From NCBI GenBank assembly GCA_040400605.1, contig JBBAPZ010000005.1:1-64000 (forward strand): a stretch of DNA of 64,000 bases. Reading direction: 5' to 3'. Below are positions 3,048-49,721 of the stretch, piece by piece; position 1 is the first letter of the stretch; each line of letters begins with the position of its first letter. The notes under the pieces are model-generated. The model saw only the letters and a program-made list of their open reading frames with translations, ran no database searches and was not told the DNA's origin. Origin of the DNA: Candidatus Sericytochromatia bacterium (GTDB taxonomy: Bacteria; Cyanobacteriota; Sericytochromatia; S15B-MN24; JAQBPE01). Made by a program: the position numbers and the translations under genes.

Positions 3048-5975
3048 ATGATGCAAAGGCGGGGGTCGATTCTCATCTCGTCGATGGGCATGATCGGTCT
3101 GTTTATGGCAGCGATTATGGGCGCTATGGCCTATGTGGGTAATCGTAACGCTGGTGCCGATAACGACAAATTCAGGTTACTCGCCGAACAGGCCGCCAAG
3201 ACAGGCATGGAGTTCGTTTTGGGATGGGCTGAGGCTTCCATTGACAAAGAAACGCGGCTACCTCGGTCGTGGGATAATATGAACGATGGTCAGGTCCTTG
3301 ATCCCGTGGCTCAGCATGCAGCGGCAGGTGTAACCACCTTTGAACGGGTGCGGGGTGTAACCACTGCCGGCGTCGGAGGCATTTTGGGACCAAACAGCGT
3401 GAGTGAATATGTTTTGGGCTCGGTGCGTGATTCGAATGGCAACGCCGCTTACGTGGTGTCTTTTAAAGCGCGTGTTCAGCAGTTTCGTGTTTCGGAGGAT
3501 ATGCCCAGACAATTCAAGGTGGGCGTGGTTGGTCGGGTGCGCAAGGCAGGTCAAAATGATCCGGCCGTGGATGGCAATGAACAGGGGACTATCGTTGCCG
3601 AACGTGTGGTGTTGAGTTACGTCGGGAAAGAACCGGTGACGCGGTATGCGGCGTTGATTGATACGGACCAGGTGCGTAATTGGGTTCCCGGGGAGGTGAT
3701 CGACGGCCCCGTTCATATTAACCGGGGTTATGTGGATTTGCAGGCACCGTCTCAGGGTTCTGGTTATCGCAACCAGAATGTCGCAATCGGGAACGGCACG
3801 TTCATAGATTCGCAGGTGTCAACCAAGATGCGCAGTGCGATGATGCTCTATGTGTCAGGCAGCAGTTATAAAGCGGGCAATCCGGGCTTCACGCTGACAG
3901 ACAAAGCCACTGGCAATGCGCAGAGTATCAACGTGACGGGATATCCGGTGTTTAAAGACGTCGTGTCCGTCACCGAAATGGGTGACGGCTCTGGTCCGCT
4001 GAACGATGATCCTGATTTAAATAGTCCGCCGTGGGCAGTGATGATTAACGGTCAACAATATTTCGATGGTGAGCATCCCGCTATGGCGGTTGCCAATTCG
4101 ATTTTCACGGCACCTGAGAATCAGAACGTCACGCGTTATGGGGCTGCAGGCATCGCTGGTCCGGTTGTGCGTCGGCAGCCGGTAGAATTGCCGCGCTCGG
4201 TGCGTAATCGTCTGTTGTCGGCGATGGGGGCACCCATGGGCGCCAATCCGAACATTTCGTTTTTGCTCGACGAGCGTGCCTCAACCGCTCATCCCTATGT
4301 TGATGCTGCTGGGGGTTTGAGAGACGGTGTGTATGTACCCACGGAGCGTTTCTGGATGAGTGGTCAGACGGGTGCTTACCAGAACGCGACGGCGCCCCAG
4401 AATATTTCGGGCAACAATACGAATTTTGCGGCTGGGGGGATTTACATTCGCGGCACGGTGGAGCTGATGCGCTTTGGCCTCGAAGGAAAGTACGCCATTT
4501 ACTTGTTCCGCTTGGGCCGTGGCGTTGGTGGTGGTACCGGGGCAGGGCAGCCACGCAGTTTTTGCTGCGACTATGCGTTGGTGGTGAATCGTTCCGTGGA
4601 TGTCACTGATCCTACGGCCGGCTTTGTATGGTTGCGTAATTTGGGACCGGATGGTTTGGATACGGCTGGGCCGGGTCAGACGGGTGCAGCATTGTTGCCG
4701 ACCGGCAAAGGGACCAAAGGTGGCCCTAAAAATAATTCCAAGACTAATCTTGTGACCAATCTGTTGGGTGGTTCGATTCCCGTCAACTCAAACACTGCTG
4801 GTCAGAATATGGAGTCATTCAGGCAAAAAGGCGGCGTTCCGGGAGCGATTGCGGTTTTGGGCCCGGGGCCGGGACGGCGATTCCCATTCAATGGCGTCAT
4901 TTTTGTCGATGCTTCATTTAATGATTCCACGCGTTGGCAGCCGGGCACCTTGCCGTTGACAGGGCATATCTTGGCCTTGGGTGATACGGGCACGGAGAAG
5001 GGTCGGAATCGCAAGGCGGCTATCAACGGGTGTGATGACGAGTTGTATAGCACGTGTCAGTTTGAAGATGCGTCCAAGGTGAATGTTAACGATCTGCCCG
5101 GGGGCATCGGGCAGATGTCTGTTTCGACGCCGGCCAGTCGTTTGTCCATTCAGTGTGTGGGTAATGTTTTCATTCAGAATGATTTGATAGCGGCGTCCAT
5201 TCGGCATTTTCAACCATACGTGAAGGAGGACCCCATCAAGCCAGCGCTTCCTCAGACCAAGGATCTGTTGGGCATCGTGTCGGATCGGCAGATATTGGTG
5301 GGTTTAATGGCTGGTCGAAATCAAAACAAGCGGGCGGAGGTTGATTTGGAGATTCATGGTTCGTTGGCTGCCTTGGGTGACCCTTCGCAGCCTTACGATG
5401 CGACCACGACCTGGCCAGCGAGTGTGAAGGTTGATCACCAAGCCTATTCAGGCTCGGTTGGTACCGAAGGTTTGATGATGTATTACAACGTGGTCGAGAA
5501 CTATAACATTTTTTATGACGCGCCAGGCGGCGGTGCGCCGACCAACGATCCGGATATCACACCAGACGTGGCCGGGGTCTATGCAGAGCAGACAGACCAA
5601 AAGTCACAATTTGGCTATCCGGCGAATCCCATTTATGAGGCGTACGGTCTGACTGATGTGACACCCGTGAACAAGAATCCGAACGGAAAGGTGCGGGGCA
5701 ATTTCCGGGTGTTTGGTTCGGTGACGCAGAAGCGACGGGGTATTGTTGGGCGCGGTGATTTATCTTATGACAAGGATTTCGTGTTTGATCGCCGCTTGCT
5801 GACTTTGGCGCCGCCCATTTTCCCGGCGTCGACGAATATGGTTGTGCGTTCTCAGAGTCCCTTTGCGCCGGATCCCCTTGACCCCAACAAGCGGCTGTAT
5901 TATCGCGGGGGGATGGCACCGGCTGCAAATACCACCGATTCGCTCGCATTTTTGTTTCAGGTGGGTATTAACTGA
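3048..5975 (+). CDS. Very large PilX/GspK-like minor pilin, possible tip adhesin
   Basis: QRRG|SILISS hydrophobic N-terminus lacking Glu5; AEQAAKTG PilX-type helix; C-terminal FDRRL..LAPPIFP motif; AGGAGG RBS. Confidence 0.7.
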   Translation: MMQRRGSILISSMGMIGLFMAAIMGAMAYVGNRNAGADNDKFRLLAEQAAKTGMEFVLGWAEASIDKETRLPRSWDNMNDGQVLDPVAQHAAAGVTTFERVRGVTTAGVGGILGPNSVSEYVLGSVRDSNGNAAYVVSFKARVQQFRVSEDMPRQFKVGVVGRVRKAGQNDPAVDGNEQGTIVAERVVLSYVGKEPVTRYAALIDTDQVRNWVPGEVIDGPVHINRGYVDLQAPSQGSGYRNQNVAIGNGTFIDSQVSTKMRSAMMLYVSGSSYKAGNPGFTLTDKATGNAQSINVTGYPVFKDVVSVTEMGDGSGPLNDDPDLNSPPWAVMINGQQYFDGEHPAMAVANSIFTAPENQNVTRYGAAGIAGPVVRRQPVELPRSVRNRLLSAMGAPMGANPNISFLLDERASTAHPYVDAAGGLRDGVYVPTERFWMSGQTGAYQNATAPQNISGNNTNFAAGGIYIRGTVELMRFGLEGKYAIYLFRLGRGVGGGTGAGQPRSFCCDYALVVNRSVDVTDPTAGFVWLRNLGPDGLDTAGPGQTGAALLPTGKGTKGGPKNNSKTNLVTNLLGGSIPVNSNTAGQNMESFRQKGGVPGAIAVLGPGPGRRFPFNGVIFVDASFNDSTRWQPGTLPLTGHILALGDTGTEKGRNRKAAINGCDDELYSTCQFEDASKVNVNDLPGGIGQMSVSTPASRLSIQCVGNVFIQNDLIAASIRHFQPYVKEDPIKPALPQTKDLLGIVSDRQILVGLMAGRNQNKRAEVDLEIHGSLAALGDPSQPYDATTTWPASVKVDHQAYSGSVGTEGLMMYYNVVENYNIFYDAPGGGAPTNDPDITPDVAGVYAEQTDQKSQFGYPANPIYEAYGLTDVTPVNKNPNGKVRGNFRVFGSVTQKRRGIVGRGDLSYDKDFVFDRRLLTLAPPIFPASTNMVVRSQSPFAPDPLDPNKRLYYRGGMAPAANTTDSLAFLFQVGIN

Positions 5976-6151
5976 TTCGGGTTTGACGCTTGGAGTCGAT
6001 GCACACGGGCTATGATTGTTGGCCTGTGTGTTTCGTTTGTTTGGGTGGCGCATCCAATGGCTGGCATGTCGTGGATGAGCGGAGTCAGCGTTGATATCGG
6101 GAACCGGTGAGTGGCCCTTGGCGTGATGCGTGTTCTTCAGAAGCGTTATGT

Positions 6152-6181
6152 TTGACACTGCGCTTGCGCACAGCCTATAGT
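6152..6181 (+). promoter_or_regulatory. Sigma70-type promoter for the actin-like gene
   Basis: TTGACA-N18-TATAGT. Confidence 0.65.
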
Positions 6182-6198
6182 AATGGCTCTGGTAGCGA

Positions 6199-7443
6199 TT
6201 GATGCGGGTCGATGTTGAATGGGAATCAAGCAAGATGAGTGACGCGGTTGCGGAGACGGTACAACTCACGCGGATGCTGCCTGATGGGATGGCGGGGCGT
6301 GCATTTCGCTTGTCGGCGGCCAAGACGGGCGAGGCGGTTCGTTCTGAATCGGTTGATTATCGCGGGCATGATAGCGTGACACCGGTTTTGGGTGATTCTG
6401 CGCGAAAGGTTGTGGCCGGGTCCGAACCGTGTCAGGTCGGGATTGATCTTGGCCGTTCTGAGACCCGCGTTTATGATGGCACGACGTTGGTGACTTTTCC
6501 GAGTCTTGTTGGCGGTCCGGTTGCGACGATTCGTCGTGGCTCCGTTCGGATCATTGATGACAATTTGGAGCAAAACTTGCAGGTCAAGGTGGAAGGTCAG
6601 ATTTACTCGCTCGGACGCTTTGCCTTGGAGCAGCCTTTTTTGTTTCCGGTCAACGATGAAAATATTTTTGAGAGCGACTTGAACAGGGCGTTGTTTCTCG
6701 GTGCGTTGGGATTGTTAACCAGGCGGCGGCAGGTACAGGGTGTTCCGCGTTATAAGGTTTGTCTGGGGGTGCCGGTTTATTTGAGCCGTCGTCCAGATTA
6801 TATTGAGCGTGCGCTGCATGCGTGGTTGGGGCGTCAGGAGTTTGAGTTTTGTGGCGAGCCGATGGTTTTTGAGATCGCGCAAATCGACGCAATCCCGCAG
6901 CCGGTTGGTGCGGTCTATGCTGGTATTTTGAGTGGTCAGATTGATTATAATCCTGAAAAGGCGATCGGCGTGATTGACCCCGGTCATTTGACAACGGATT
7001 GGGTGGTCGTGCGATTACCCAATGAGTTGACGCAGTATTCGGGGCATACGACAGCGGTTGGTGGTTTTCGTCTATATGAGGCGGTGGCTGCGTATTTGTC
7101 TGAGCAGATGGTGTCGCGCATCGATCCGAGTGCGTTGCAGGAGAGCATGGTGACGGGTGTTTACGAAGCCAACGGCAGTGACGCGATCAAGATTCCGGAT
7201 GCTTTACAGGATCAACTCAAGGAAATCATGGCGCAGCAGGTCGCGTTGACCGTCAAGCAGAGTTGGCGCGATTTGCGCATCCACCAGATGGTCTTGGTGG
7301 GTGGCTTTGGTCAGATGTTGTACCCGTTGTTGCGCAAGTATCCGTATTTTCGGGATCTTGAACTGGCAACGGATCCCCGTTATGTTAATGTCAAGGGTTT
7401 TTATGAGTACGCATTGGCGTCACCCGTGACAGTACATGCCTGA
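6199..7443 (+). CDS. ParM/StbA-family actin-like ATPase
   Basis: Actin-fold motifs: phosphate-1 GIDLGRSET, connect-1 IPQPVGA, phosphate-2 IDPGHLTTD, adenosine LVGGFG, connect-2 NVKGF. Start may be ATG 6235. Confidence 0.85.
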   Translation: MMRVDVEWESSKMSDAVAETVQLTRMLPDGMAGRAFRLSAAKTGEAVRSESVDYRGHDSVTPVLGDSARKVVAGSEPCQVGIDLGRSETRVYDGTTLVTFPSLVGGPVATIRRGSVRIIDDNLEQNLQVKVEGQIYSLGRFALEQPFLFPVNDENIFESDLNRALFLGALGLLTRRRQVQGVPRYKVCLGVPVYLSRRPDYIERALHAWLGRQEFEFCGEPMVFEIAQIDAIPQPVGAVYAGILSGQIDYNPEKAIGVIDPGHLTTDWVVVRLPNELTQYSGHTTAVGGFRLYEAVAAYLSEQMVSRIDPSALQESMVTGVYEANGSDAIKIPDALQDQLKEIMAQQVALTVKQSWRDLRIHQMVLVGGFGQMLYPLLRKYPYFRDLELATDPRYVNVKGFYEYALASPVTVHA

Positions 7444-7534
7444 GTGAGTGCGCTGGGATGAGGGCAGTTTGACGCCTTGGGACTGTCTATGTTGGCTTGA
7501 ACGAGTGGGTGCAAGGGTCGCCCTTGGGGTGTGA

Positions 7535-9004
7535 GTGGTGTTTGATTCGTTGCAGTCTCAGTTTGGAAAGTTGCTGGGCAAGGGTGTTGATGACGCGGGT
7601 AGTCCGATTACCGCGGAGCAACTCAGAGTGGTGTTGCAGTCAATTGAGTCGAAGTACAATAACGTCAAGACCGAGAACACTCAGTACAAGTCGACAATTG
7701 ATGAGCAGAGGCAGGTCATTGCCGAGTTGGAGCAGTCTTTGACTGTTGCCCGCACGACAGCCGAGCGGCAGGAGGGGGTGGCGTTGATACCCCAATTGCA
7801 GGCTGATCTGGATGAGGCGCGGCGTTATTTTGATGAGCAACAGGCGAAGATGTCTGCGCTTGAGTCGGATCGTTTGCAGTTGCAAAGCAAGTTGACTGTT
7901 CAGGACACGTTGATTGGGACCTTGCGTCAAGAGGTTGCCGAGTTGCGGGAGCGGCAGGCAGGGGGTGCGGCGCTGGATGAGTTGGCGCGGGTCAATGCCG
8001 AGTTATCGATTGTGCGTCAGGCTTTGCAGGCGAGTGAGTTGCGTTGTTTGGGGTTCAGTGAGCGAGCGGCGGAGGCCGATCTCCTCAACGAACGGGCAGA
8101 GCGCCTTGAGGCTCAGTTGCAGACGGTTCAGGCAGAGCTTCTCGAACTTGGTGGACGCCTTGAATCAGCGGAGCAAGCGTGTTTGGCTGCGGAGGCCGAA
8201 CGGGATGGGTTGCGCGTCAGGGTTGTGCCATTGATGGAGGAACTGGATGTTTTGAAAGGCGATCGCCAATGTCTGTTGGATGACCGGGAGTCTTTGTCTG
8301 AGCAACTGGATGCGGTGCGTGCCGAGGCGGATGCGCAGCGGACGGAGTTAACGGCATTGCGGGATGAGCTGAGTACGCTTGCGATGGACCGGGAAGAATT
8401 GTTGCATCAGGTCGGCCGTCAAGCTTCTGAGATTGAGCGCTTGCAGCTTCAGCAGACGGATGCAGGCCCGCAGGTGTTGGTGATTGCCGAGCTTGAATCA
8501 CGTTTATTGGCATCGCGTGAGGACTGTGAGCGTCTTGAGTCGGATAATCAGGCTTTGCGCGCGCGTTTGGAGGCTTTGGCGCAAGAGCCTGCGACGTTGA
8601 GCGCACGGGAGCGCACGGAATGGGAATTCAAGCTTAAAAAACTGACGCTGGAGTGTCAGGCTGCGCATGCGACGATTGCGGAGCTTCGTGTACATCGGGC
8701 GACGATTGAGCAACAGCAGACGGATTCAACCATGGCTGTTTCAGTGTTGCGACAGCAGGTGGAGGACGTGCGTCGGGACCGCAATATTTTGCGGGAGCGC
8801 TTGGCGCAGACGCGGCAGGAACAGGTGGTTCAGGAGCAGGTCAAAACGGAGCGCAGGGCGGCATTGAAGGGGTTGGCGCGCCTGCGTGAGGTTGGTGGAA
8901 TACCCAAAAAAGTGAATGCCGAAAAGTTGGCGGCCGAGGCGCAGCGGCGTGAAACGCTTGGTCAGTTGATCGGTCGTGGTGGCAATCCGGGTGAAAAAGG
9001 CTGA
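7535..9004 (+). CDS. Long coiled-coil protein with no catalytic motif
   Basis: E/Q/L/R/A heptad pattern over ~430 aa; no Walker motifs. Confidence 0.85.
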   Translation: MVFDSLQSQFGKLLGKGVDDAGSPITAEQLRVVLQSIESKYNNVKTENTQYKSTIDEQRQVIAELEQSLTVARTTAERQEGVALIPQLQADLDEARRYFDEQQAKMSALESDRLQLQSKLTVQDTLIGTLRQEVAELRERQAGGAALDELARVNAELSIVRQALQASELRCLGFSERAAEADLLNERAERLEAQLQTVQAELLELGGRLESAEQACLAAEAERDGLRVRVVPLMEELDVLKGDRQCLLDDRESLSEQLDAVRAEADAQRTELTALRDELSTLAMDREELLHQVGRQASEIERLQLQQTDAGPQVLVIAELESRLLASREDCERLESDNQALRARLEALAQEPATLSARERTEWEFKLKKLTLECQAAHATIAELRVHRATIEQQQTDSTMAVSVLRQQVEDVRRDRNILRERLAQTRQEQVVQEQVKTERRAALKGLARLREVGGIPKKVNAEKLAAEAQRRETLGQLIGRGGNPGEKG

Positions 9005-9010
9005 GCCACT

Positions 9011-9037
9011 TCAGTTTTTGTGTGACTGAACCGATAA
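9011..9037 (+). promoter_or_regulatory. Sigma28 (FliA/SigD)-type promoter for slt-flgF
   Basis: TCAG-N15-ACCGATAA versus consensus TAAA-N15-GCCGATAA. Confidence 0.55.
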
Positions 9038-9071
9038 GGTGCTAGGGGCCGTCGATGAGAAGGACGTTGAA

Positions 9072-9677
9072 TTGACCGGTTTATGTGAGGCATTGGCGTC
9101 AGTTGCACGGATTCAGGATCGTGTCGGTGCGATCGCTGCTGGTTTCGCGCGCGTTGGTCACGCCGATAGGGTTTTTGCGGAGGAATTGACCGCGCATGGG
9201 CAGGGTGCCTTTCCGGTCTTGCCGCAGGTTGCAGCATTGACGAACGGGAATGGTAGTACTGCAGTCACTGTCGGACCACGTGCGGCGCAGTGGCAGGGCG
9301 AGTTGGACAATGTCGCCCGACGCCACGATTTGGAACCTGGTTTGTTGCGAGCGGTTGTGATGGCTGAATCGGGCGGCAATCCGCGGGCACGCAGCCCGGT
9401 TGGTGCGTTGGGGTTGATGCAGTTGATGCCTGATACGGCGCGATCGTTAGGGGTGAAAAATCCGCTTGAACCCGCTGAAAATTTGGAGGGCGGTGCGCGG
9501 TATTTGTCAGGTTTGGTGGAGCGTTTTGGGTTAAAGCAAGGAATTGCGGCTTACAACGCTGGTCCGGGTGCAGTCGAACGGTATGGTGGTGTTCCGCCTT
9601 ATCCGGAGACGCAGGCTTATGTCAAACGGGTGTTGACGCTGTACGAGCAGGGACGTGATGGTGGGCCAGAGGAGTAA
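9072..9677 (+). CDS. Lytic transglycosylase (SLT domain), probably flagellar-associated
   Basis: Catalytic AES, GLMQLMP, AAYNAG and ETQAYV motifs. Likely TTG start at 9072 after GAAGGA (ORF track starts at 9039). Confidence 0.9.
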   Translation: MTGLCEALASVARIQDRVGAIAAGFARVGHADRVFAEELTAHGQGAFPVLPQVAALTNGNGSTAVTVGPRAAQWQGELDNVARRHDLEPGLLRAVVMAESGGNPRARSPVGALGLMQLMPDTARSLGVKNPLEPAENLEGGARYLSGLVERFGLKQGIAAYNAGPGAVERYGGVPPYPETQAYVKRVLTLYEQGRDGGPEE

Positions 9678-9680
9678 GTC

Positions 9681-10454
9681 GTGATCAGGGGTTTGTATAC
9701 GTCCAGTGCGGGGATGCAGGTTGAAGCGTTGCGCCAGGAGGCGATCGCTAACAATTTGGCGAATGTGAATACGGTCGGCTTCAAGCGGGATATGGCAGTG
9801 ATTGAGGCTCGGGCTAACTTTGCGGTATCGCGGTTGAACGATCCGGTGGGGCCGGAGATTGATGGTTTGCGGTCTGGCGCGCCCATCGGCGAGCTGGGGA
9901 CTGGTGTCGTGTTGGATCGGGTGGTTAAGCGCTTCGAGGAAGGCAGTCTCATTCAAACGGACGCACCATTGGATTTTGCGCTTGCGGGCGAGGGTTTTTT
10001 CAGTTTGTCGACCCCAGGTGGCGAAACCCTCTTTACGCGTGCCGGGGATTTTACGCGTGATGCCCAGGGTGTTTTGGTCGATAAACTGGGACGTGGTGTG
10101 ATGGGACAAGGGGGGCCGATTACGCTTCCACCCGGCGAAGTGACGGTTGGAACCGATGGCGGGGTGTTCGTCAATGGACAGCTGTTAGACCGCTTGGCCA
10201 TTGTGCGCTTTGCCAATCCGGATGACGATTTGGAGAAGCTGGGCGATGCCGCATTCCGTTATCGCGGGGAGGATGCGCCACAACCTGCGACCGCACAGGT
10301 GTTGCAGGGGAAGTTGGAAGGTTCAAACGTGAATGGGGTCCGCGAGATGGTGGAGATGATCGCCGTGGTGCGGCAGTACGAAGCGAATCAAAAGGCCATC
10401 AGCCATCAGGATGAAACCTTGGCCAAGGCTGTCAATGAAGTTGCGCGTGGGTGA
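9681..10454 (+). CDS. flgF: Flagellar basal-body rod protein FlgF (FlhO-like)
   Basis: MIRGLYT...IANNLANVNTVGFK N-terminus and LEGSNVN...EMVEMI C-terminus. Confidence 0.88.
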   Translation: MIRGLYTSSAGMQVEALRQEAIANNLANVNTVGFKRDMAVIEARANFAVSRLNDPVGPEIDGLRSGAPIGELGTGVVLDRVVKRFEEGSLIQTDAPLDFALAGEGFFSLSTPGGETLFTRAGDFTRDAQGVLVDKLGRGVMGQGGPITLPPGEVTVGTDGGVFVNGQLLDRLAIVRFANPDDDLEKLGDAAFRYRGEDAPQPATAQVLQGKLEGSNVNGVREMVEMIAVVRQYEANQKAISHQDETLAKAVNEVARG

Positions 10455-10566
10455 TCCGTGATCAAGTGTTTGGCGTTATTGTTTTTCGGATTTTTTTTGT
10501 TCGCGACGTCCGCGGCGTAGGTTCAGGTCCGGATGGCGATAACGATGGCCCTTTATTGCAACAGTT

Positions 10567-10606
10567 TTAAAATGCAATTAAAGTTTGGTCCCTGGTGTGT
10601 CGAATC
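10567..10606 (+). promoter_or_regulatory. TTAA-N7-TTAA box overlapping a sigma28-like promoter of flgG
   Basis: TTAA-aatgcaa-TTAA (10567-10581); TAAA-N16-GTCGAATC (10579-10606). Confidence 0.5.
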
Positions 10607-10700
10607 ATGAAGTGAGTAATGTGTCTCCTGTTATGTTGGTTTTGTGATTGGTTTGGGTTCACGGTTGGCGCCTGATGGGGCGTGAAAGGGAACATTCGTT

Positions 10701-11483
10701 ATGATGGGAGCGTTGTGGACGGCTGCATCCGGCATGAAGGCGCAGCAGACCAATCTTGATATCATTTCGAATAACTTGGCCAACGCGAACACGTACGGGT
10801 TTAAAAAGATGCGGGCTGAGTTCAAGGATTTGATGTATCGCACGGCGCGGGCGGCGGGTACGCCTTTGCAGTCTGGAACGCAGTTGCCGGTGGGGATTCA
10901 GTTTGGTATGGGTGTCCATAATTCCGCGACTGCACGCGCATTTGGTCAAGGTGAGTTTCAATTGACCGAGAATCCGTTGGATTTGGTGATTGAAGGCGAT
11001 GGTTTTTTTCAGGTGCAACGGCCTGATGGTACGGTGGCTTTTTCGCGTGATGGGACCTTTAAGTCGGATGGTAATGGTCAGCTGGTTACGTCTGAGGGTT
11101 TATTGATTTTGCCGCAGATTACGGTTCCTCAGGGTGCCAGTAATTTTTCGGTGACGCCGGAGGGGGTTGTCACAGCGACAGTCGGAAATAACATTCAGAC
11201 CTTGGGACAGATTCAAATCGCGCGTTTCGTAAACCCTGCCGGGTTGATGGCGGCGGGACGCAACCTGTTTGTCCAGACGACGGCGTCGGGTGAACCGGTT
11301 TTGCTGAATCCGGGTACCGATGGGATTGGTACACTTGCTCAGGGTTATATTGAAATGTCCAACGTGAAGGTCGTTGAGGAGATGGTGAACCTGATTTTGG
11401 CGCAACGTGCTTATGAAGCCAATTCGAAGTCGGTTCAGACGTCGGATGAGATGCTTGGAATGGCTAATAATCTGAGAAGGTAG
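10701..11483 (+). CDS. flgG: Flagellar distal rod protein FlgG
   Basis: ALWTAASGM, ISNNLAN.NT.GFKK, FKDLMY, EMSNV.VVEEMV, QRAYEANSK; 260 aa. Confidence 0.97.
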   Translation: MMGALWTAASGMKAQQTNLDIISNNLANANTYGFKKMRAEFKDLMYRTARAAGTPLQSGTQLPVGIQFGMGVHNSATARAFGQGEFQLTENPLDLVIEGDGFFQVQRPDGTVAFSRDGTFKSDGNGQLVTSEGLLILPQITVPQGASNFSVTPEGVVTATVGNNIQTLGQIQIARFVNPAGLMAAGRNLFVQTTASGEPVLLNPGTDGIGTLAQGYIEMSNVKVVEEMVNLILAQRAYEANSKSVQTSDEMLGMANNLRR

Positions 11484-11487
11484 TAGC

Positions 11488-11835
11488 ATGTTGGATCCGC
11501 TAGAGAATCAGAGTTTGTCGCGGTCTCGAGATACGAGGCGCGCGCAGCGCGGTTCCCTTGCGCCAACCACCCAGAAACAGAAGGCCTTGTGGAAGGCTTG
11601 CCAGGAGTTTGAGTCTGTTTTGATGGGGCAAATGCTGAAGCAGATGCGTACGGCCGTGCAGACGACGGATCCCCTGAATCAGGGCATGGCCAATGATACG
11701 TGGCGGGATATGCTGGATGATGAGAGGGCCCGCGCGATGGCTCAGGCGGGGGGAATCGGTCTGGCCGATCAAATGTACCGACAATTGGTCAACAATGTCA
11801 GTGCAACCGAGACGGCCAAACGGAACCCCGAATGA
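11488..11835 (+). CDS. flgJ: Short FlgJ (rod-binding/cap domain only)
   Basis: ACQEFES...MLKQMR...DMLDDE...GGIGLADQMYRQL; no muramidase domain. Confidence 0.85.
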   Translation: MLDPLENQSLSRSRDTRRAQRGSLAPTTQKQKALWKACQEFESVLMGQMLKQMRTAVQTTDPLNQGMANDTWRDMLDDERARAMAQAGGIGLADQMYRQLVNNVSATETAKRNPE

Positions 11836-26392: not shown

Positions 26393-28141
26393 TTGGAGGT
26401 AACCGTGCGTTTTTTTAAACAATCCGCAACAGTGCTGGCCGTGACGGCCATGTGGATGGGAGCGGGCAGTGCGTGGGCTCAGATGGCGCCGAATGCACCT
26501 GTCTCGGATGGGGTTCGCGGCTTGAGTGATGTGCCCGCTAAGCACTGGGCTGCTCAATCTATCCGGACCTTGCAGGAAAAGTACGATGTGATGTTGGGGT
26601 TTTCTGATCGTACGTTCCGGGGATCGAAAACGATGACGCGGTACGAACTGGCAGCAGCCTTGGCCAAACTGTTGACACGCATCGAAGAACGGATAGCGAT
26701 CGCAACGGGTGCGCCAGTCGATGTGAGCGGTGATGTCAGTGTTGATGACTTGCGCACGATCGCCAAGTTGCAACGAGAATTTCGCGAAGAACTCGATGCC
26801 TTGAAAATTCGGACGGATGGCATCGACGCGCGGATCGCTACCCTTGAAAAACGGGTGCGCATTTCAGGCGTTCACCGCGTTGATTACCGCGACTTTTTGG
26901 CGGATCCTCCTGGCAACACCTTGACCAACGCTTTGACGGGCGACGTCCGATGGCGCAATTCGCTTAACTTTGACGCGGAACTTGGCGATGACCTCAGCGC
27001 CACCGGTACGCTCAACATTGACATTTACAGCCCGCAATCGGCGGCCAACGCCTTTTTGAGAGGCGTGAACCCGGCAGCGCCTGTAACCGATGTCTATGCC
27101 GTGAAGTCTTTGCTGACCTACAACCCCGGTTGGATGCAATATGCCGTGGGTATGGGCGCCATGCGGCAACATCTGGACTTGGGCTCGGGCGTGACGGATC
27201 CCTTCAAACGCCAGTTGTGGCAAAACGGCAGTGGCGGCTATGGCTTTGTTGGTACGCCGGCACTCAGGCGCGACGGTTCATTCGCCCTGAGTGGCGGTAA
27301 TGCCGGTGCACCGTTGTGGTTGCCCGGTACCAACGTGATTGAAGACGTGCTGGATCCCAACAATTCGTCGTTGCTCGCACCGCATGGCAACTGGCTGACA
27401 GCGTCACGTTTCGCGCTCGGGCCAATCAATGTGGGCCTTGGTTATCATCGGGGCGCCTTGGCCGGCTTCGGTCTCTTTGGCGGTATCGCGGGGCTTGGTG
27501 ATTCCTTGCCAGCGATGCAGATGTGGAACACCGATGGTCAGGCGATCGCAACCCTCGGCTTCAACCTTGCCGGTGCGCGCTTCAATGTCCTCGCCAACTC
27601 GCCGGGCGCAAGCGTTGGGGACACGCAGCGCAACGACAAAACCTTTGGTGCCTCGCTGGATCTTGGCAACGACGCACTGAATCTCTCGGCCGAGGTGCTG
27701 GGCACCGGAAGCTGGGGCGCACGGGACTTCGCGGCGTCCAAGGGATCATTGCGTTTGGGATCATCGGACATCTTTGGCACCGGAATCGGTCTCTCAGCCG
27801 GTATGGTATCCGGTAGCCTGAATGGCAGTCGCAACAACTTGTTGATTGGCGGCGCGGATTACACATCACTTGGTCTGGTCATGAAAACACCTGCCTTGAT
27901 GATGCTCCCATCCGTTACGGTTGCGGCCCAGAACACCGGTCGCGGCTTGGCATTGGCCGGTGTCAACGGCGCCATCAGTTCCGGTATCAGCGTCAGCACG
28001 GATGTGCGGCTCTTTGGTTTGCCTGCGATCAACCTGGAATACTCGCGTGCCAAGTTTGGCGCCACCGGTGACCAGAGCCTCTGGGGACCGGCTGGCTTCA
28101 GCCACGATCAATTGGCACTTGGCAGCACCGTCAAGTTCTGA
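26393..28141 (+). CDS. SLH-domain outer-membrane porin (OmpM/SomA-like)
   Basis: Signal peptide, SLH (SDVPAKHWA...TRYELAA), coiled coil LQREFREEL, beta-rich C-terminus ending in Phe. Confidence 0.85.
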   Translation: MEVTVRFFKQSATVLAVTAMWMGAGSAWAQMAPNAPVSDGVRGLSDVPAKHWAAQSIRTLQEKYDVMLGFSDRTFRGSKTMTRYELAAALAKLLTRIEERIAIATGAPVDVSGDVSVDDLRTIAKLQREFREELDALKIRTDGIDARIATLEKRVRISGVHRVDYRDFLADPPGNTLTNALTGDVRWRNSLNFDAELGDDLSATGTLNIDIYSPQSAANAFLRGVNPAAPVTDVYAVKSLLTYNPGWMQYAVGMGAMRQHLDLGSGVTDPFKRQLWQNGSGGYGFVGTPALRRDGSFALSGGNAGAPLWLPGTNVIEDVLDPNNSSLLAPHGNWLTASRFALGPINVGLGYHRGALAGFGLFGGIAGLGDSLPAMQMWNTDGQAIATLGFNLAGARFNVLANSPGASVGDTQRNDKTFGASLDLGNDALNLSAEVLGTGSWGARDFAASKGSLRLGSSDIFGTGIGLSAGMVSGSLNGSRNNLLIGGADYTSLGLVMKTPALMMLPSVTVAAQNTGRGLALAGVNGAISSGISVSTDVRLFGLPAINLEYSRAKFGATGDQSLWGPAGFSHDQLALGSTVKF

Positions 28142-36125: not shown

Positions 36126-36140
36126 TTAAATTTATGTTAA
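36126..36140. promoter_or_regulatory. TTAA-N7-TTAA box within inverted repeat aattttaa/ttaaaatt
   Basis: Directly visible between divergent genes. Confidence 0.5.
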
Positions 36141-36185
36141 AATTATCCTCCAGCGTGGTGTTTTGTCAACAGGGTGAGGCGAGCG

Positions 36186-36934
36186 TGTTGCGAACCGGTG
36201 TTGTTGGGGTTTGTTGTGTCGTGGGCCTTTTGGCTTGTGGGCGCGTGCCTGATGCGCGATCCGTGATCGGTACCGGCGTTTCGGCTTTGACGAATTACGC
36301 GTTGGCGGATTTGTATCCTTTGCGGTCCAAGATGCGTGCGACGTACGCGCTGGAGCAGACCCGTTCGGATGGGCGGGTGGTGTATCGCACGATGTTGATG
36401 GATGTCGTTGATGTGGTGCGAGAGGCGTCGGGGGATACATTGGCGACGACGGTGCGAACCTATGGTGATTTTCGTTTACCGGCCACACGTGTTCGGGTGT
36501 CCAATGGCACGGTTCGCGTCAGTCGTGCCCAGGATCCGGAACCGGGGCCATCTTTGGTGCTGTTGCAGTCACCGTTGGTCGTTGGTCGCACGTGGCAGGG
36601 ACGTCAGTTTGCCGATGGCAGTACCGAGTCGGTTCAATATATGGGAGTGGAACGTGTTGATGGGCCTGAGGGGGTAGTCAGGGCGCATCGTGTTGATCAC
36701 CTGATCGATTATGCCCAAGGTGGCTCGGATCGCCTGGAGTACTGGTACGCGCCCGGATGGGGGGCGGTGCGGATGGTCGAGCGTACGACCTTATTCACCA
36801 ATAAGGGCCGCATTCATTTGACGGTCGTTGGCGTTCTCAATGGTTTGACGACCCACGACGGGAGCCGCAAGGCGCAACCCGTGGCACATCCGTCGCCATC
36901 GTGGTTGCCTGGTGGCTGGTTTACCGACCGTTGA
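36186..36934 (+). CDS. Hypothetical lipoprotein
   Basis: LLAC lipobox; beta-rich with YWYAPGWG.VR motif; start uncertain. Confidence 0.7.
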
Positions 36935-42655: not shown

Positions 42656-43810
42656 CTACAGGGCCCTGAGTGACGTCGTGACTACCAAATCCTTAAACTT
42701 TTCGTTCTGCACAATGTTATCTTCGTCATCGCGGAATTTGATGAGCACATTGATCAAAGCCGGTTGATCCTTCGGGTCCGGTGCGTTAAAGAAGGACTTC
42801 AGTGTCGACGAACCAATCGGCACCAGAATTTCCTCAGGCGGCCCGAATGAGTTTTGCTGCGCCGCAGGAATCTGTTTCGGCGGAATGCCATATCTGACCG
42901 GGCCGTACTGCACAACCGGCAAGCCACCGAGACTGCGCGCCAAGGTCGTAAACTCATAGGTCAGTTCAACTGCATTAACCATCACCCCTTGTGACCCAGG
43001 GGGCGCTTTCAGGGTTACTTGGATATCCGGCGGATCCGGCTCGTAGGCAAGACTGGTTTCGATTCGCGATACCCCGCCTTCCGAGTTCTCCTTGACGGTG
43101 GCCCTGACCACGATGCCGGTCGTTGGTCGGGTGTTGGTCCACTGCACGACACGCGGTAACGGCAGCGAAGGGTCCGCAGCCGCCACGGACTCAGGAATCA
43201 GCACATTCAGCGCAATGCCGGTCAAAATGTTGTTCGCAAACACGATCGTTCGGTTCTCCGCAGACACCGCGCCGCCGTAAGTTGCTGTGAGCGTCACGTT
43301 CCCTGCGGGTATATTCTCAAGGAAAAACTCACCCTTTCGCAGATACATGTAACGTTTCTGCCAACCTTGCTCGTCCGCAGGATCGATTGCAGGCGGAAAC
43401 TTACGCGCTCGGCGCTCAGCCGGCACTTCCTTCTTGCCGTCATCATAATCATGAAGCACAAAGATCGTCTTGCTGTCATCTTGAAACTTATCCGCTTCAT
43501 CCTGCGTGGTGATGCATTCTTCAGCACCAGGCGGATTGCCGGTCAATGTCGATGAGCCACCGGATGTCACAAAGGCCAGCGGGATGGGAACTTCAACCCC
43601 CTTCGCCCCATAGACGAACCCCTGCACGCTCCCTCGCCGGATCACAGGCGGTGATGGCTTTGCCCGTCCACCCAAAATCGGACCAAGGGCCGGATATTGT
43701 AAGACGAGAGCATCGCGTTGTTCAGTGCAACTGATGACCGATGACAAAACCAGGATGCCCATTATCAACTTCGATCGTGACAATGACCGTTTCACACGCA
43801 TTCTCCTCAC
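42656..43810 (-). CDS. Hypothetical lipoprotein
   Basis: VISC lipobox; beta-rich; directly follows 43811-44446. Confidence 0.75.
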   Translation of the reverse strand: MRRMRVKRSLSRSKLIMGILVLSSVISCTEQRDALVLQYPALGPILGGRAKPSPPVIRRGSVQGFVYGAKGVEVPIPLAFVTSGGSSTLTGNPPGAEECITTQDEADKFQDDSKTIFVLHDYDDGKKEVPAERRARKFPPAIDPADEQGWQKRYMYLRKGEFFLENIPAGNVTLTATYGGAVSAENRTIVFANNILTGIALNVLIPESVAAADPSLPLPRVVQWTNTRPTTGIVVRATVKENSEGGVSRIETSLAYEPDPPDIQVTLKAPPGSQGVMVNAVELTYEFTTLARSLGGLPVVQYGPVRYGIPPKQIPAAQQNSFGPPEEILVPIGSSTLKSFFNAPDPKDQPALINVLIKFRDDEDNIVQNEKFKDLVVTTSLRAL

Positions 43811-44446
43811 TTATTGGGTAACATTGCCGATGAAACGAATTGGTATGCTCACAGGAATCTCGATTTGATTGTAGTTGTCGTCTTGTCCCGACAGCAATAC
43901 ACGACAACTGATGCTGTGCACCAACTCTTCACGCAGGCGTGGAGACGGCGCAAACGCAAAATTCTGATTCCGACCGTAGCGCCTCACCTCTTGGTGATCA
44001 ATGGGAAGCCGCACAGTTACCGTTGAAACCTGACCATTCGAGGCAGGTGGAATGTAGACACCCACAGCAAGATTCGATTTCGAAATATCCAAACTATCAA
44101 TGGGATTACCAGAGTTGTCATAGTACTCCGCAAGATAATTGTTGATGTAACAACCCGGCGTCCCGTCGTTGGGAAACGATGAAATCTGAATGTCCACGTC
44201 TCTCACTTCAACAAGAAACAGTCTCTGTTCAGTTTGGTAGGTTGTAGTGACCTCCATCAGTGACGGCACCGGCACGGCATAAAGGCGGGACGCAGGCAGC
44301 AACGGATTGGAGATGTCAAAAAACTTGCACCCGGTGATCAATGCGGCCGCAAGACCCATGATGCCGAAACCCAACCCCGTTCTTAGAGCGATGACGCGCA
44401 TGGCAGCGTAAGACTCCTGTTTCCTCATGATGTCCACTCGTGGCAA
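43811..44446 (-). CDS. Hypothetical lipoprotein
   Basis: ITGC lipobox; true start probably at one of the downstream ATGs. Confidence 0.75.
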   Translation of the reverse strand: MPRVDIMRKQESYAAMRVIALRTGLGFGIMGLAAALITGCKFFDISNPLLPASRLYAVPVPSLMEVTTTYQTEQRLFLVEVRDVDIQISSFPNDGTPGCYINNYLAEYYDNSGNPIDSLDISKSNLAVGVYIPPASNGQVSTVTVRLPIDHQEVRRYGRNQNFAFAPSPRLREELVHSISCRVLLSGQDDNYNQIEIPVSIPIRFIGNVTQ

Positions 44447-45416
44447 TATCTAGTGTACCCGCACCAAGGGTGCTTAAACCGAGCGACTGAGCGCTTTTTC
44501 CTCCGCACCTCATCCGCCTGGGCCCCATCATAGACGCTGCCCCCCCGGTTGACTGTGACCGATGGCCCAATCTTGGATCTTTGCTTTGCGACCTGTACCG
44601 TTCCTGAGCGTGTTTGACTGTTTCTCGTCGTTCAGAAATTTGCATTCACAGGCCAGCAGCCTGTGATGTCACCAATGCCTGCTTCTGCGCGCTGAGCCGA
44701 TAATACCTTTCCCGTGTGACTTTGAAGTAACCGGCAAGGCTTCGGGGCAATCCTATTTTTGACCATAGCCGCTGATACCAAACCGGTTGGTCGCCAGCCT
44801 GTCGATAATTGGAAAAAGAAACGATGGTTTCGGTACGTACTTTCAACAATCGCAACTTCAAAAGACCGGAACAGTGTGGGTGGCGGCTCAACAACAGCCG
44901 CAACATTCCGAGTGCCAGCAAACGAAGTTGCTGCCGGGTTGTCACATTTTTCGACAGCGTGAGCGTGAACCGCAATCGTCGACGGTCAAGCCGTTTTAAC
45001 TCGACGATTAAACAATGCCTAGACCAGTCGTTCGCACAGGGTTTCGTGTCGATCACCGCCATCGTGTGATCAACTTGTTCAACCCAGTAGTGCCAATTGG
45101 GGACGTCTGAAGCAAACGGCAAAATGGGACCTTTGAAACGGCTTTCGGTACTGGCTTGATGCAAGGTGAATCTCCTCCCTGATACGAACCACACAGCGGT
45201 GTGGAACACATGTTCTAATTGAAAGGATATTCGAAAGTTTGTTCCAAGTCCAGTGTTCAAGCGCACAACAGTGAACGGACTGTGTCGAAGGTGTGGCGGT
45301 TGCGACAAAACAAGCCCTGCGACATGGCGCTGCGCGCCCCCTGTCTTCTCATTGCATTGGTGTGGCTAACGCGTGAAGCTGCAAGACAACACGCGCGGCT
45401 ATGACGCATTCGTGAC

Positions 45417-48575: not shown

Positions 48576-49721
48576 TCAGGCACCTCCTTGGCTCGTGTCG
48601 GCATCGCGGCTCACGATCCGTAAAATGGCGTCCGCTTGAGCGCGTATCGCGCTCAGATGGGTAAGCGCGAGGTGTCGGGCTCCTGCTGAACCATCCAGAA
48701 TGACGCTCGACCACTCCTGCGCGGTCAGTTGGTGCAGCCAACCATGCGCCTCCCCGAGCGATTGCAAGGGTAATGTTTCAGCCGATACGATGGGCCCTTC
48801 CGGATCCCACGGCAAAGCCTCAGCCTCTGCACGTACCGGAATGCCAACTGGCACATAACGCATATCTGCATCCATCTCTCGCGGTTCCTCGTTAAATGCC
48901 GGCTCCCGCGGCGGAGCGAAAAGTTTGCGAATACTGGCAACAGGTGCACGCTCCAAGGGAATCAGGGTTTCATCCTCCGTTTTAAGGCCGCCTTGATCCA
49001 GAATGTCCTGAAACATGTCCGGTCTTTGTGCCTGTAACTGCCCCAATGCGCGGGCTTGTCCCTTTTTCAGACCTTTTTCAACGGCCATGGCGATGATTTC
49101 GTCCGGTAGTTGCAGCAAGCTGACATCGGCGTTCAGAAAGCTTCGTGGCTCTTTACCTGCCATTTCCTGAAGGATCTGACGGACGGTCATTTCGTGCTTG
49201 ATCGCAAACTGCCTCGCCGGATGCACGTCGTGTGGATCTTGGGGCACATTCGTCAACAATGTGAGGATCGTATGAATACGCCACACGGCCGTGTCCCCAT
49301 TGATGCAGTCATACTGCGGGTCGTGACTGAGCGTCGCATCGAGAAACCGGCAGATGGCGTCAGTGTGTTCAATTGGATGTAAACGACTGCTTTTGATGTT
49401 TTCATGCAGGGTCATCCGTCTGGCAACCCAGTCATCACAGGCAATGACATCGACCATCATCGTTGTCCAGCCCAGGCGACGACAAGCTTCTACCCGTTGG
49501 TGACCAAAAACGACTTCGTAGTTGGGACCCATTTCGCGTACGCGTGGTCGTTGCAGGATTCCAACCGCCAAAATACTCGCCTGCAAACTCTCCAGAACCA
49601 GTGGGTCGAGAGCGCGTCGCGGTTGGTGGGGGCTGGGTCTGATGGTGTCCAATGACACCGTTTCAGTACGCAAAAAGGTGACCTGGTGATTGTCCGGATC
49701 GATCAGGGGACTGAGCAACAT
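48576..49721 (-). CDS. ParB/Spo0J-like N-terminal domain protein with a divergent C-terminus
   Basis: P.QPR, GILQ.P.VR, GHQR.EA, HEN...L.PIE. Confidence 0.8.
   Translation of the reverse strand: MLLSPLIDPDNHQVTFLRTETVSLDTIRPSPHQPRRALDPLVLESLQASILAVGILQRPRVREMGPNYEVVFGHQRVEACRRLGWTTMMVDVIACDDWVARRMTLHENIKSSRLHPIEHTDAICRFLDATLSHDPQYDCINGDTAVWRIHTILTLLTNVPQDPHDVHPARQFAIKHEMTVRQILQEMAGKEPRSFLNADVSLLQLPDEIIAMAVEKGLKKGQARALGQLQAQRPDMFQDILDQGGLKTEDETLIPLERAPVASIRKLFAPPREPAFNEEPREMDADMRYVPVGIPVRAEAEALPWDPEGPIVSAETLPLQSLGEAHGWLHQLTAQEWSSVILDGSAGARHLALTHLSAIRAQADAILRIVSRDADTSQGGA

Follow-up and report, generated by a model that had tools for sequence, protein, structure and literature searches.

The 64,000 nucleotides of Candidatus Sericytochromatia DNA analysed here (contig JBBAPZ010000005.1, positions 1 to 64,000; hereafter the window) carry, at the head of a flagellar gene cluster, a gene for a ParM-fold actin-like protein (ACT) followed by a gene for a coiled-coil partner (CC). 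The comparative data show that the pair is an undescribed chromosomal two-gene unit that is unlike a plasmid partition cassette and has a conserved link to flagellar genes. Specifically, ACT-CC is a lineage-wide feature of one order of Sericytochromatia, uncultured and non-photosynthetic relatives of cyanobacteria. The reading preferred here, at a probability of roughly 45%, is that ACT is a domesticated ParM which, together with a membrane adaptor, serves flagellar placement or the motility apparatus and not DNA segregation. It is favoured because of the position of the pair, its tight spacing, FliM-like motifs on one group of ACT proteins and the mbl-flgF-flgG-flgJ arrangement of Firmicutes. 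An earlier note on this DNA had proposed an undescribed two-protein cytoskeleton for flagellar or pilus positioning, polarity or shape; the conserved, flagellum-linked unit bears out its core, whereas a pilus role is little supported, since the window's family alone has pilin-like genes upstream, and these stand behind a terminator-like hairpin.

The distribution of the pair was followed through all 47 genomes of the class. Of the 27 that belong to the host's order, 25 have ACT, always as a single copy; none of the 20 others has it, and the count within the order rises to 26 once G014 is included, where the tail of ACT lies at a contig edge; in the remaining genome, G015 (81% complete), the contig begins inside CC. 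The ALP_N profile likewise found nothing in the 20 other genomes, a weak test given that it also missed 10 known ACT genes. Across the phylum, a search of 401 genomes with five candidates scored per genome returned ACT from 23 members of the order, plus a single CorM-like protein (E=5.5e-9), while against 1.84 billion cluster representatives ACT gave 7 long matches at E 3e-83 or better and a first non-member at 6e-27. The nearest named relatives outside the order are Bacillota ParM/StbA proteins, the closest plasmid proteins reach about 26% identity at best, and a search of the ESM Atlas with ACT gave only generic ParM clusters. The N-terminal profile of CC has strong matches in 25 of the 27 order genomes and one outside, at E=0.007. 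In five genome pairs, the ratio of nonsynonymous to synonymous substitution rates (dN/dS) is 0.01-0.12 for the ACT core, 0.10-0.32 for CC and 0.02-0.10 for CC residues 1-60; ACT is under purifying selection. No published description of the pair was found in the reachable literature, which lies mostly outside subscription journals, and the main text of the CorMR preprint (bioRxiv 10.1101/2025.06.27.661541) never names Sericytochromatia. ACT-CC is apparently an undescribed, order-wide actin family with a new type of adaptor.

The pairing first noticed in a single genome holds throughout the order: CC, or a short CC paralogue and then CC, directly follows ACT in all 25 genomes in which both ends are assembled. 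In the window, the 489-amino-acid coiled-coil frame that begins 91 bp after the actin (at GTG 7535) and leads into slt-flgF is confirmed, with the refinement that relatives favour GTG 7538 as the start and thus 488 residues. In families f2-f4 the two genes are separated by only 0-6 nt (16/16 loci). The proposed linkage to flagellar genes also extends to the relatives: slt-flgF or flgF comes immediately after CC in 22 of 27 genomes, in two cases read over a contig break that falls inside CC; the contig of G002 ends within slt. Metagenome loci, some of which duplicate the class genomes, have the same gene order in six of ten cases, the other four being incomplete. Downstream of CC in the window follow slt, flgF, flgG, flgJ, a yvyF-like zinc-ribbon gene, flgM and flgN, and further genes named by reading their translations (flgK, flgL, fliW, csrA, flhF, flhG). 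The host genome has a second flgF-flgG pair elsewhere (G000:C2:36855-42075), with downstream genes resembling flgA, flgH, flgI and a sigma28 factor; two flgG-type loci are present in the majority of the order's genomes.

How tightly the pair is tied to the rod genes differs between families. The earlier note had cautioned that a sigma28-like promoter behind CC might make the link merely positional, and this caveat stands for the window's family, where such a site lies 5' of slt in six of eight genomes (four by script, G008 and G003 by eye). It does not extend to the other three families: in 14 of their loci no sigma28-like site occurs between CC and slt or flgF, and the distance from the end of CC to the following start codon is 2-45 nt in 13 of these and 101 nt in one. 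Because of these short gaps and the lack of a sigma28-like site, ACT-CC and the rod genes probably form one transcript in f2-f4.

The actin itself retains its ParM/StbA-type assignment. It matches Pfam ALP_N (E=4.9e-12) and MreB-like_C (E=2.8e-8) above cut-off, and all five actin motifs are found in the window's protein, in atypical form: GIDLGRSETR for phosphate 1, PQPVGA for connect 1, DPGHLTTD for phosphate 2, VGGFG for adenosine and NVKGFY for connect 2. With an AlphaFold model of the core (predicted local distance difference test score, pLDDT, 72), the top structure matches are pCBH ParM, Dh-cParM1, CorM, Ta0583 and Alp7A, with MreB and actin ranking lower; the best 24 VIA rows (Z 13.3-18.1) are all ParM-type proteins, as are the top Foldseek rows, and a profile search of PDB sequences yields the same ranking (best matches E=1.6e-16 and 7e-9). 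A diverged Mbl was considered and is ruled out by this structure ranking together with the lack of any match to the MreB_Mbl profile PF06723.

The same matches bear on a quite unlikely alternative, in which ACT would be a non-polymerising actin-fold adaptor (PilM-like, or static and FtsA-like) or CC a self-assembling scaffold that is co-expressed with ACT without binding it. The top structural matches are all filament-forming ParM-type proteins, constant adjacency with gaps of 0-6 nt is consistent with co-translation of the two genes, and the conserved terminal helix of CC, behind its variable linker, resembles a binding peptide. Pointing the other way are the residues of the motifs: the connect-1 position after Pro is Arg in 7/7 complete f4 orthologues and Thr in one more (G013), phosphate 1 has Arg where Lys is usual, and the adenosine motif contains a bulky residue. 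In addition, two proteins described below, a short CC paralogue present in six of the eight genomes in the window's family and another coiled-coil protein, point to separate coiled-coil assemblies.

Phylogenetic analysis against ParM and CorM sequences, with no MamK sequence in the trees, sets ACT apart. In a 28-row tree CorM, the domesticated ParM of filamentous cyanobacteria that the earlier note had mentioned, groups with cyanobacterial plasmid-type ParMs (98/92), and ACT forms a clade of its own outside them (100/100). The motifs DxGR and GH, common to ACT, CorM and a protein designated P0058 and mostly aromatic in the other 13 outgroup rows, had hinted at a sister relationship of ACT and CorM, which approximately unbiased (AU) tests reject (p=0.033; p=0.014 with P0058 added). 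Placement of ACT plus P0058 as sister to all cyanobacterial ParMs is neither rejected nor demonstrated (AU p=0.28); long branches limit the power of all these tests, and the groups were named only after the first tree had been inspected. P0058 is a 328-residue ParM-like protein with GRSEIR and GH motifs like those of ACT and is the nearest outgroup in both trees; a search for its gene context returned none. In the other tree, with 13 of the 24 aligned ACT rows, f1, f2 and f4 each form their own group, matching vertical descent.

CC varies between 248 and 822 residues across orthologues, with conservation confined to its two ends. Residues 1-14 are predicted to form an amphipathic helix in 28/28 segments (hydrophobic moment 0.45-0.78; in the body of the window's CC the mean is 0.27 and the maximum 0.57), and a similar stretch, GFFQRLARLFR, forms the C-terminus of the FlhG encoded in the window. 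The tails of FlhG and MinD are membrane anchors. The modelled N-terminus is a helix-loop-helix with no beta-strand, the linker before the terminal helix is mostly rich in Pro and Ala, and the terminal helix itself has the consensus RRELL.RLIG, with a variant ARKLDWL.G in f4. The tail of CC may also resemble that of the ParR protein of plasmid R1. Several other assignments were tried and discarded. The motifs at the two ends show no homology to each other, and an EF-hand is not borne out: the calmodulin matches are sums of weak stretches (single-stretch E about 2), and the candidate loop has Gln at position 12 and mostly lacks Asp at positions 1 and 5. An ESM Atlas search with the CC module returned generic coiled coils only.

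Two further coiled-coil proteins accompany the pair. In six of eight genomes of the window's family, though not in the window, a short CC paralogue of about 65-150 residues stands between ACT and CC; it has the N-terminal module and no terminal helix and, because it lacks that helix, could act as a cap or competitor. A second protein of about 290-380 residues, encoded outside the window at G000:C15:73779-74840 with orthologues in families f1 and f2 (L153-L157, L159, L160), contains a segment like the CC module (KY..LR.EN.KL; E=2e-7 within its own genome) and could be a paralogue or hetero-coil partner of CC.

ParMRC systems segregate plasmids, and a further rival reading is that ACT belongs to a DNA-segregation system of this kind, whose cargo would be the chromosome or a resident replicon and whose DNA adaptor would be either CC or the product of a distant gene. 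The fold of ACT and the ParM/StbA annotation of its closest named relatives speak for it, as does the existence of polymerising chromosomal ParMs, described in the accessible text of PMC12270681. The surroundings make it very improbable. As the earlier note had observed, parC-like iterons are lacking: no iteron array occurs at window positions 5900-9800, and the 250 bp upstream of ACT hold no parC-like repeats in 25/25 loci compared with shuffles. Equally upheld is the observation that no plasmid or phage gene lies nearby, since the 31 open reading frames scanned at 19-63 kb include no integrase, transposase, replication or phage family and the neighbours are housekeeping, pilin and flagellar genes. 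ACT is a single-copy gene at a fixed chromosomal site, the modelled N-terminus of CC has no beta-strand, ParB proteins are present, and the catalytic residue is lost in one family. No small ribbon-helix-helix ParR lies beside ACT, its downstream neighbour being CC or the short paralogue in 25/25 loci; the profile PF10784 found no match in five genomes, where the controls were equally without a match. The term "orphan" used in the earlier note for this actin thus applies to the missing adjacent ParR and not to the pair as a whole, because CC has the layout of a ParR/CorR-type adaptor. Besides ACT, the host genome has a separate canonical MreB on another contig, ParB proteins and MinC, and canonical MreB is found elsewhere in most genomes of the order. 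G007 (95% complete) has no full-length MreB match and an intact ACT-CC, which may reflect an assembly gap.

The available data are compatible with a model in which a ParM-type actin and its adaptor became fixed once, in the ancestor of the order, at the 5' end of an slt-flgF-flgG-flgJ operon. CC would dimerise through its coiled coil and be held on the inner membrane by its N-terminal helix, and its C-terminal helix, carried on a flexible linker, would catch ACT much as CorR does with CorM. ACT, in turn, would bind nucleotide and assemble into membrane-held filaments or patches, which would label or reinforce the point at which rod and transglycosylase pass through the wall. The connect-1 position after Pro orients the catalytic water in actins; because Arg or Thr replaces Gln there in 8 of 24 orthologues, hydrolysis-driven dynamics of ACT are probably dispensable, and its structure is probably more static than a plasmid spindle.

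Several observations weigh against this flagellar model. The pair is not needed for flagellum building in general: all 12 flagellated genomes of f9 and f41 that were examined, out of 43 found outside the class, have slt-flgF-flgG with unrelated genes upstream and no ACT or CC, and flgF-flgG occurs without the pair in 13/13 examined loci from other Sericytochromatia families, three of them with little upstream DNA. Because slt-flgF-flgG exists without the pair in relatives, ACT-CC was added once to an older unit and then kept; all genomes being kin, the conserved order counts as one retained event and not as repeated recruitment. Expression of the pair need not be coupled to flagellar assembly in the window's family, since a separate sigma70-type promoter serves ACT there and a sigma28-like site of their own precedes slt-flgF. 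Moreover, the pair is unlinked from flgF in G004, G019 and G020, and G003 carries a 5.5-kb insertion between CC and slt. Finally, the Firmicutes precedent is two-edged, as Mbl is itself a cell-shape protein according to the accessible part of PMC3720852, and the FliM-like motifs described below are confined to one genus, with none on the window's ACT.

These points lend weight to a different reading, possible although doubtful, in which the membrane-tethered pair is a CorMR-like or Mbl-like cytoskeleton that acts on wall geometry or pole identity and its locus is an old insertion never undone. The separate promoters in the window's family, the three broken linkages and the relatives whose flagella do without the pair are what favour it: a conserved housekeeping-type promoter stands apart from the sigma28-like site, and the pair is kept where the flgF linkage is broken, with slt in G019 remaining beside ACT-CC, away from flgF. 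CorMR, the sole characterised domesticated ParM with a membrane adaptor in the sources at hand, controls shape, and 11 of the 28 N-terminal segments of CC match Pfam DivIVA weakly (best E=4.5e-4), as one of many coiled-coil families matched. The gene order tells against it, being kept in 22/27 genomes and four families while the upstream neighbours change, as do the tight spacing into slt or flgF outside the window's family, the FliM-like motifs on ACT in one genus and the presence of MreB.

In genus g9, ACT ends in a 175-residue Pro/Ala/Glu tail with repeated FliM-like motifs (L042:6970-7474, and the first 235 bases of the reversed locus L050). The motif occurs at least twice in each of two species, as MDQAAIDALI and L(D/E)QGNID(S/A)LI, with differing linkers. 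Compared with the FliM peptide of the same genome, LSQAEIDALLSA, those of G013 score 31 and 28, a level of 28 being reached by 14 of 1.59 million background windows and no other ACT or CC frame having a window that scores above 22; the motif was noticed first and the scoring test designed afterwards. The N-terminal LSQXEIDALL of FliM binds phosphorylated CheY (CheY-P), as stated in the accessible text of PMC6700473, and the g9 motifs keep its Q, ID and hydrophobic positions and replace the Glu. A bolder version of the flagellar model builds on these motifs and is, in our judgement, unlikely: a plasmid-type actin, domesticated independently of CorM, would have become a flagellum-dedicated cytoskeleton whose filaments CC holds at the basal body, and the g9 actin would read phospho-CheY through its FliM-like peptides. 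If true, chemotaxis signalling would act directly on an actin, and the slot of mbl in Firmicutes would have been taken here by another actin unrelated to it, implying a recurrent use of actin in rod assembly.

The features of the locus are collected in Table 1.

Table 1. Features of the ACT-CC locus, in window coordinates unless a locus is named
Feature	Position	Strand	Basis or remark
Terminator-like hairpin, end of upstream pilin-like operon	6001..6031	+	12-pair stem, consensus match only
sigma70-type promoter TTGACA-N18-TATAGT	6152..6181	+	promoter scan; identical hexamers 5' of ACT in 8/8 genomes of the window's family
ACT, ParM-fold actin-like protein, 402 aa	6235..7443	+	open reading frame (ORF), Pfam, motifs, structure searches; longest ORF from 6199
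N-terminal extension of ACT: short conserved RLT-containing motif and variable linker	6235..6423	+	window's family only; no Pfam match
Phosphate-1 loop GxDLGRSExR	6439..6468	+	G, D, L, G, R, S, E, R invariant in 24/24 aligned orthologues
Connect-1 motif PQPVGA	6895..6912	+	Gln in 16/24 orthologues, Arg in 7, Thr in 1
Phosphate-2 loop DPGHLTTD	6976..6999	+	GH pair also in CorM
CC, coiled-coil partner, 488 aa (489 from GTG 7535)	7538..9004	+	ORF and homology
N-terminal amphipathic helix of CC, candidate membrane anchor	7538..7582	+	hydrophobic moment 0.66 vs coiled-coil body maximum 0.57; model helix 2-12
Conserved module D..IT.EQL..VL.SIE.KY..L..EN, start of coiled coil	7592..7690	+	alignments, model, dN/dS
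Conserved C-terminal helix of CC (RRETLGQLIG), candidate actin-binding peptide	8945..8974	+	alignments
sigma28-like promoter for slt-flgF, TCAG-N15-ACCGATAA	9011..9037	+	seen in window's family only
slt, lytic transglycosylase of ancestral slt-flgF-flgG unit	9072..9677	+	longest ORF from 9039
flgF, flgG, flgJ (rod-binding domain), rod genes headed by the pair	9681..11835	+	ORFs, Pfam
Short CC paralogue loci	L028:6960-7223, L030:5764-6204, L031:7043-7465, L032:1686-2024, L033:12823-13122, L027 gap		

The start of ACT at ATG 6235 is preferred by homology, its extension motif aligning with the N-termini of relatives. That motif (6235-6330; consensus VRLTY.LP..M.G..F.V.R) gave no match in a Pfam search, is followed by a variable linker and belongs to the window's family only, so that the N-terminal extension described in the earlier note exists in the window without being general to ACT proteins. 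Its claim of an own sigma70 promoter gains from the relatives, as the same two hexamers, TTGACA and TATAGT, lie 17 or 18 nt apart 5' of ACT in all eight genomes of the window's family; the scan of the window by itself is not above chance (2 sites vs 3.2 in shuffles). For slt, TTG 9072 is probably the start and not GTG 9039, because of the ribosome-binding site and the position of the sigma28-like site. In f2-f4 (L034-L048, L018), ACT ends in EV, EA or VEA, codons that double as the ribosome-binding site of CC. The GC content of the ACT-CC region equals that of its surroundings. Upstream, at window:218-5975, lie three large pilin-like genes (368, 539 and 975 residues; N-methylation motifs in two, otherwise no Pfam match), which are kept 5' of ACT in the window's family only. 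Elsewhere in the window, a stand-alone protein encoded at 48576-49721 on the minus strand has a ParB-like domain at its N-terminus and accounts for one of the genome's four ParB_N matches, and frames of 211-582 residues at 26393-28141, 36134-36934, 42656-45308 and 62412-63143 have no Pfam match at E 1e-5.

The authors of the CorMR work raise the question of repeated ParMR repurposing, in the accessible text of their preprint (bioRxiv 10.1101/2025.06.27.661541), and ACT-CC offers a concrete second case in the same phylum: a distinct, order-wide actin family whose partner reached the CorR layout from a different sequence. The pair supplies purifiable proteins, among them a natural variant with Arg for Gln at the catalytic position, for studying how a DNA-segregation motor turns into a membrane scaffold, and makes the unexplained mbl-flgF-flgG-flgJ arrangement testable by comparison. 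For an uncultured lineage that branches at the base of the cyanobacterial phylum, it also provides a first point of entry into cell biology.

Among known systems, DivIVA and GpsB resemble CC in having a membrane-proximal N-terminus followed by a long coiled coil, but CC matches them no better than it matches unrelated coiled-coil families, and no DivIVA structure is among its best 60 PDB rows. MamK-MamJ likewise combines a chromosomal actin with a neighbouring adaptor, through which an organelle is linked to the filament; MamK is, however, not among the top structural matches listed for ACT, and CC differs in being a coiled coil. Plasmid ParMRC and chromosomal cParMR systems share fold and motifs with ACT (pCBH ParM, 6ixw/6izr; Dh-cParM1, 8x1i; Alp7A, 5ec0; PMC12270681), whereas ACT-CC has no small DNA-binding ParR, parC repeats or mobile context, is a single-copy unit throughout an order, and is separated from other ParMs by a large score gap (E 3e-83 vs 6e-27 among long matches). 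In Firmicutes, an actin-family gene stands directly 5' of the rod genes in mbl-flgF(flhO)-flgG(flhP)-flgJ, a known arrangement whose significance is described as unexplained in the accessible part of PMC3720852; Mbl is nevertheless of the MreB type, ACT has no MreB_Mbl match, and CC and slt sit between ACT and flgF.

The closest likeness in layout is to CorMR/FcmBC of Nostocales and Oscillatoriales, where, as far as the accessible texts describe it (bioRxiv 10.1101/2025.06.27.661541; PMC12645912; PDB 9rmi), a chromosomal ParM-derived actin has its partner gene a few bases downstream. CorR, like CC, combines an N-terminal amphipathic helix, a coiled segment, a Pro-rich linker and a terminal helix, its N-terminus binding the membrane and its C-terminus CorM, and CorM and ACT both have DxGR in the phosphate-1 motif and GH in the phosphate-2 motif, some members also carrying an N-terminal extension. 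The two systems are distinct in sequence: ACT scores 25.7 bits against the FcmB model, whose cut-off is 300, and connect 1 has Gln or Arg in ACT and Glu in CorM. That CC is a CorR homologue was likewise rejected, as CorR has a ribbon-helix-helix that CC lacks and hhalign gives a probability below 1% for either end of CC. CC, at 248-822 residues, is also far longer than the CorMR partner of about 140-185, and the host of ACT-CC is flagellated, with the pair heading its rod operon.

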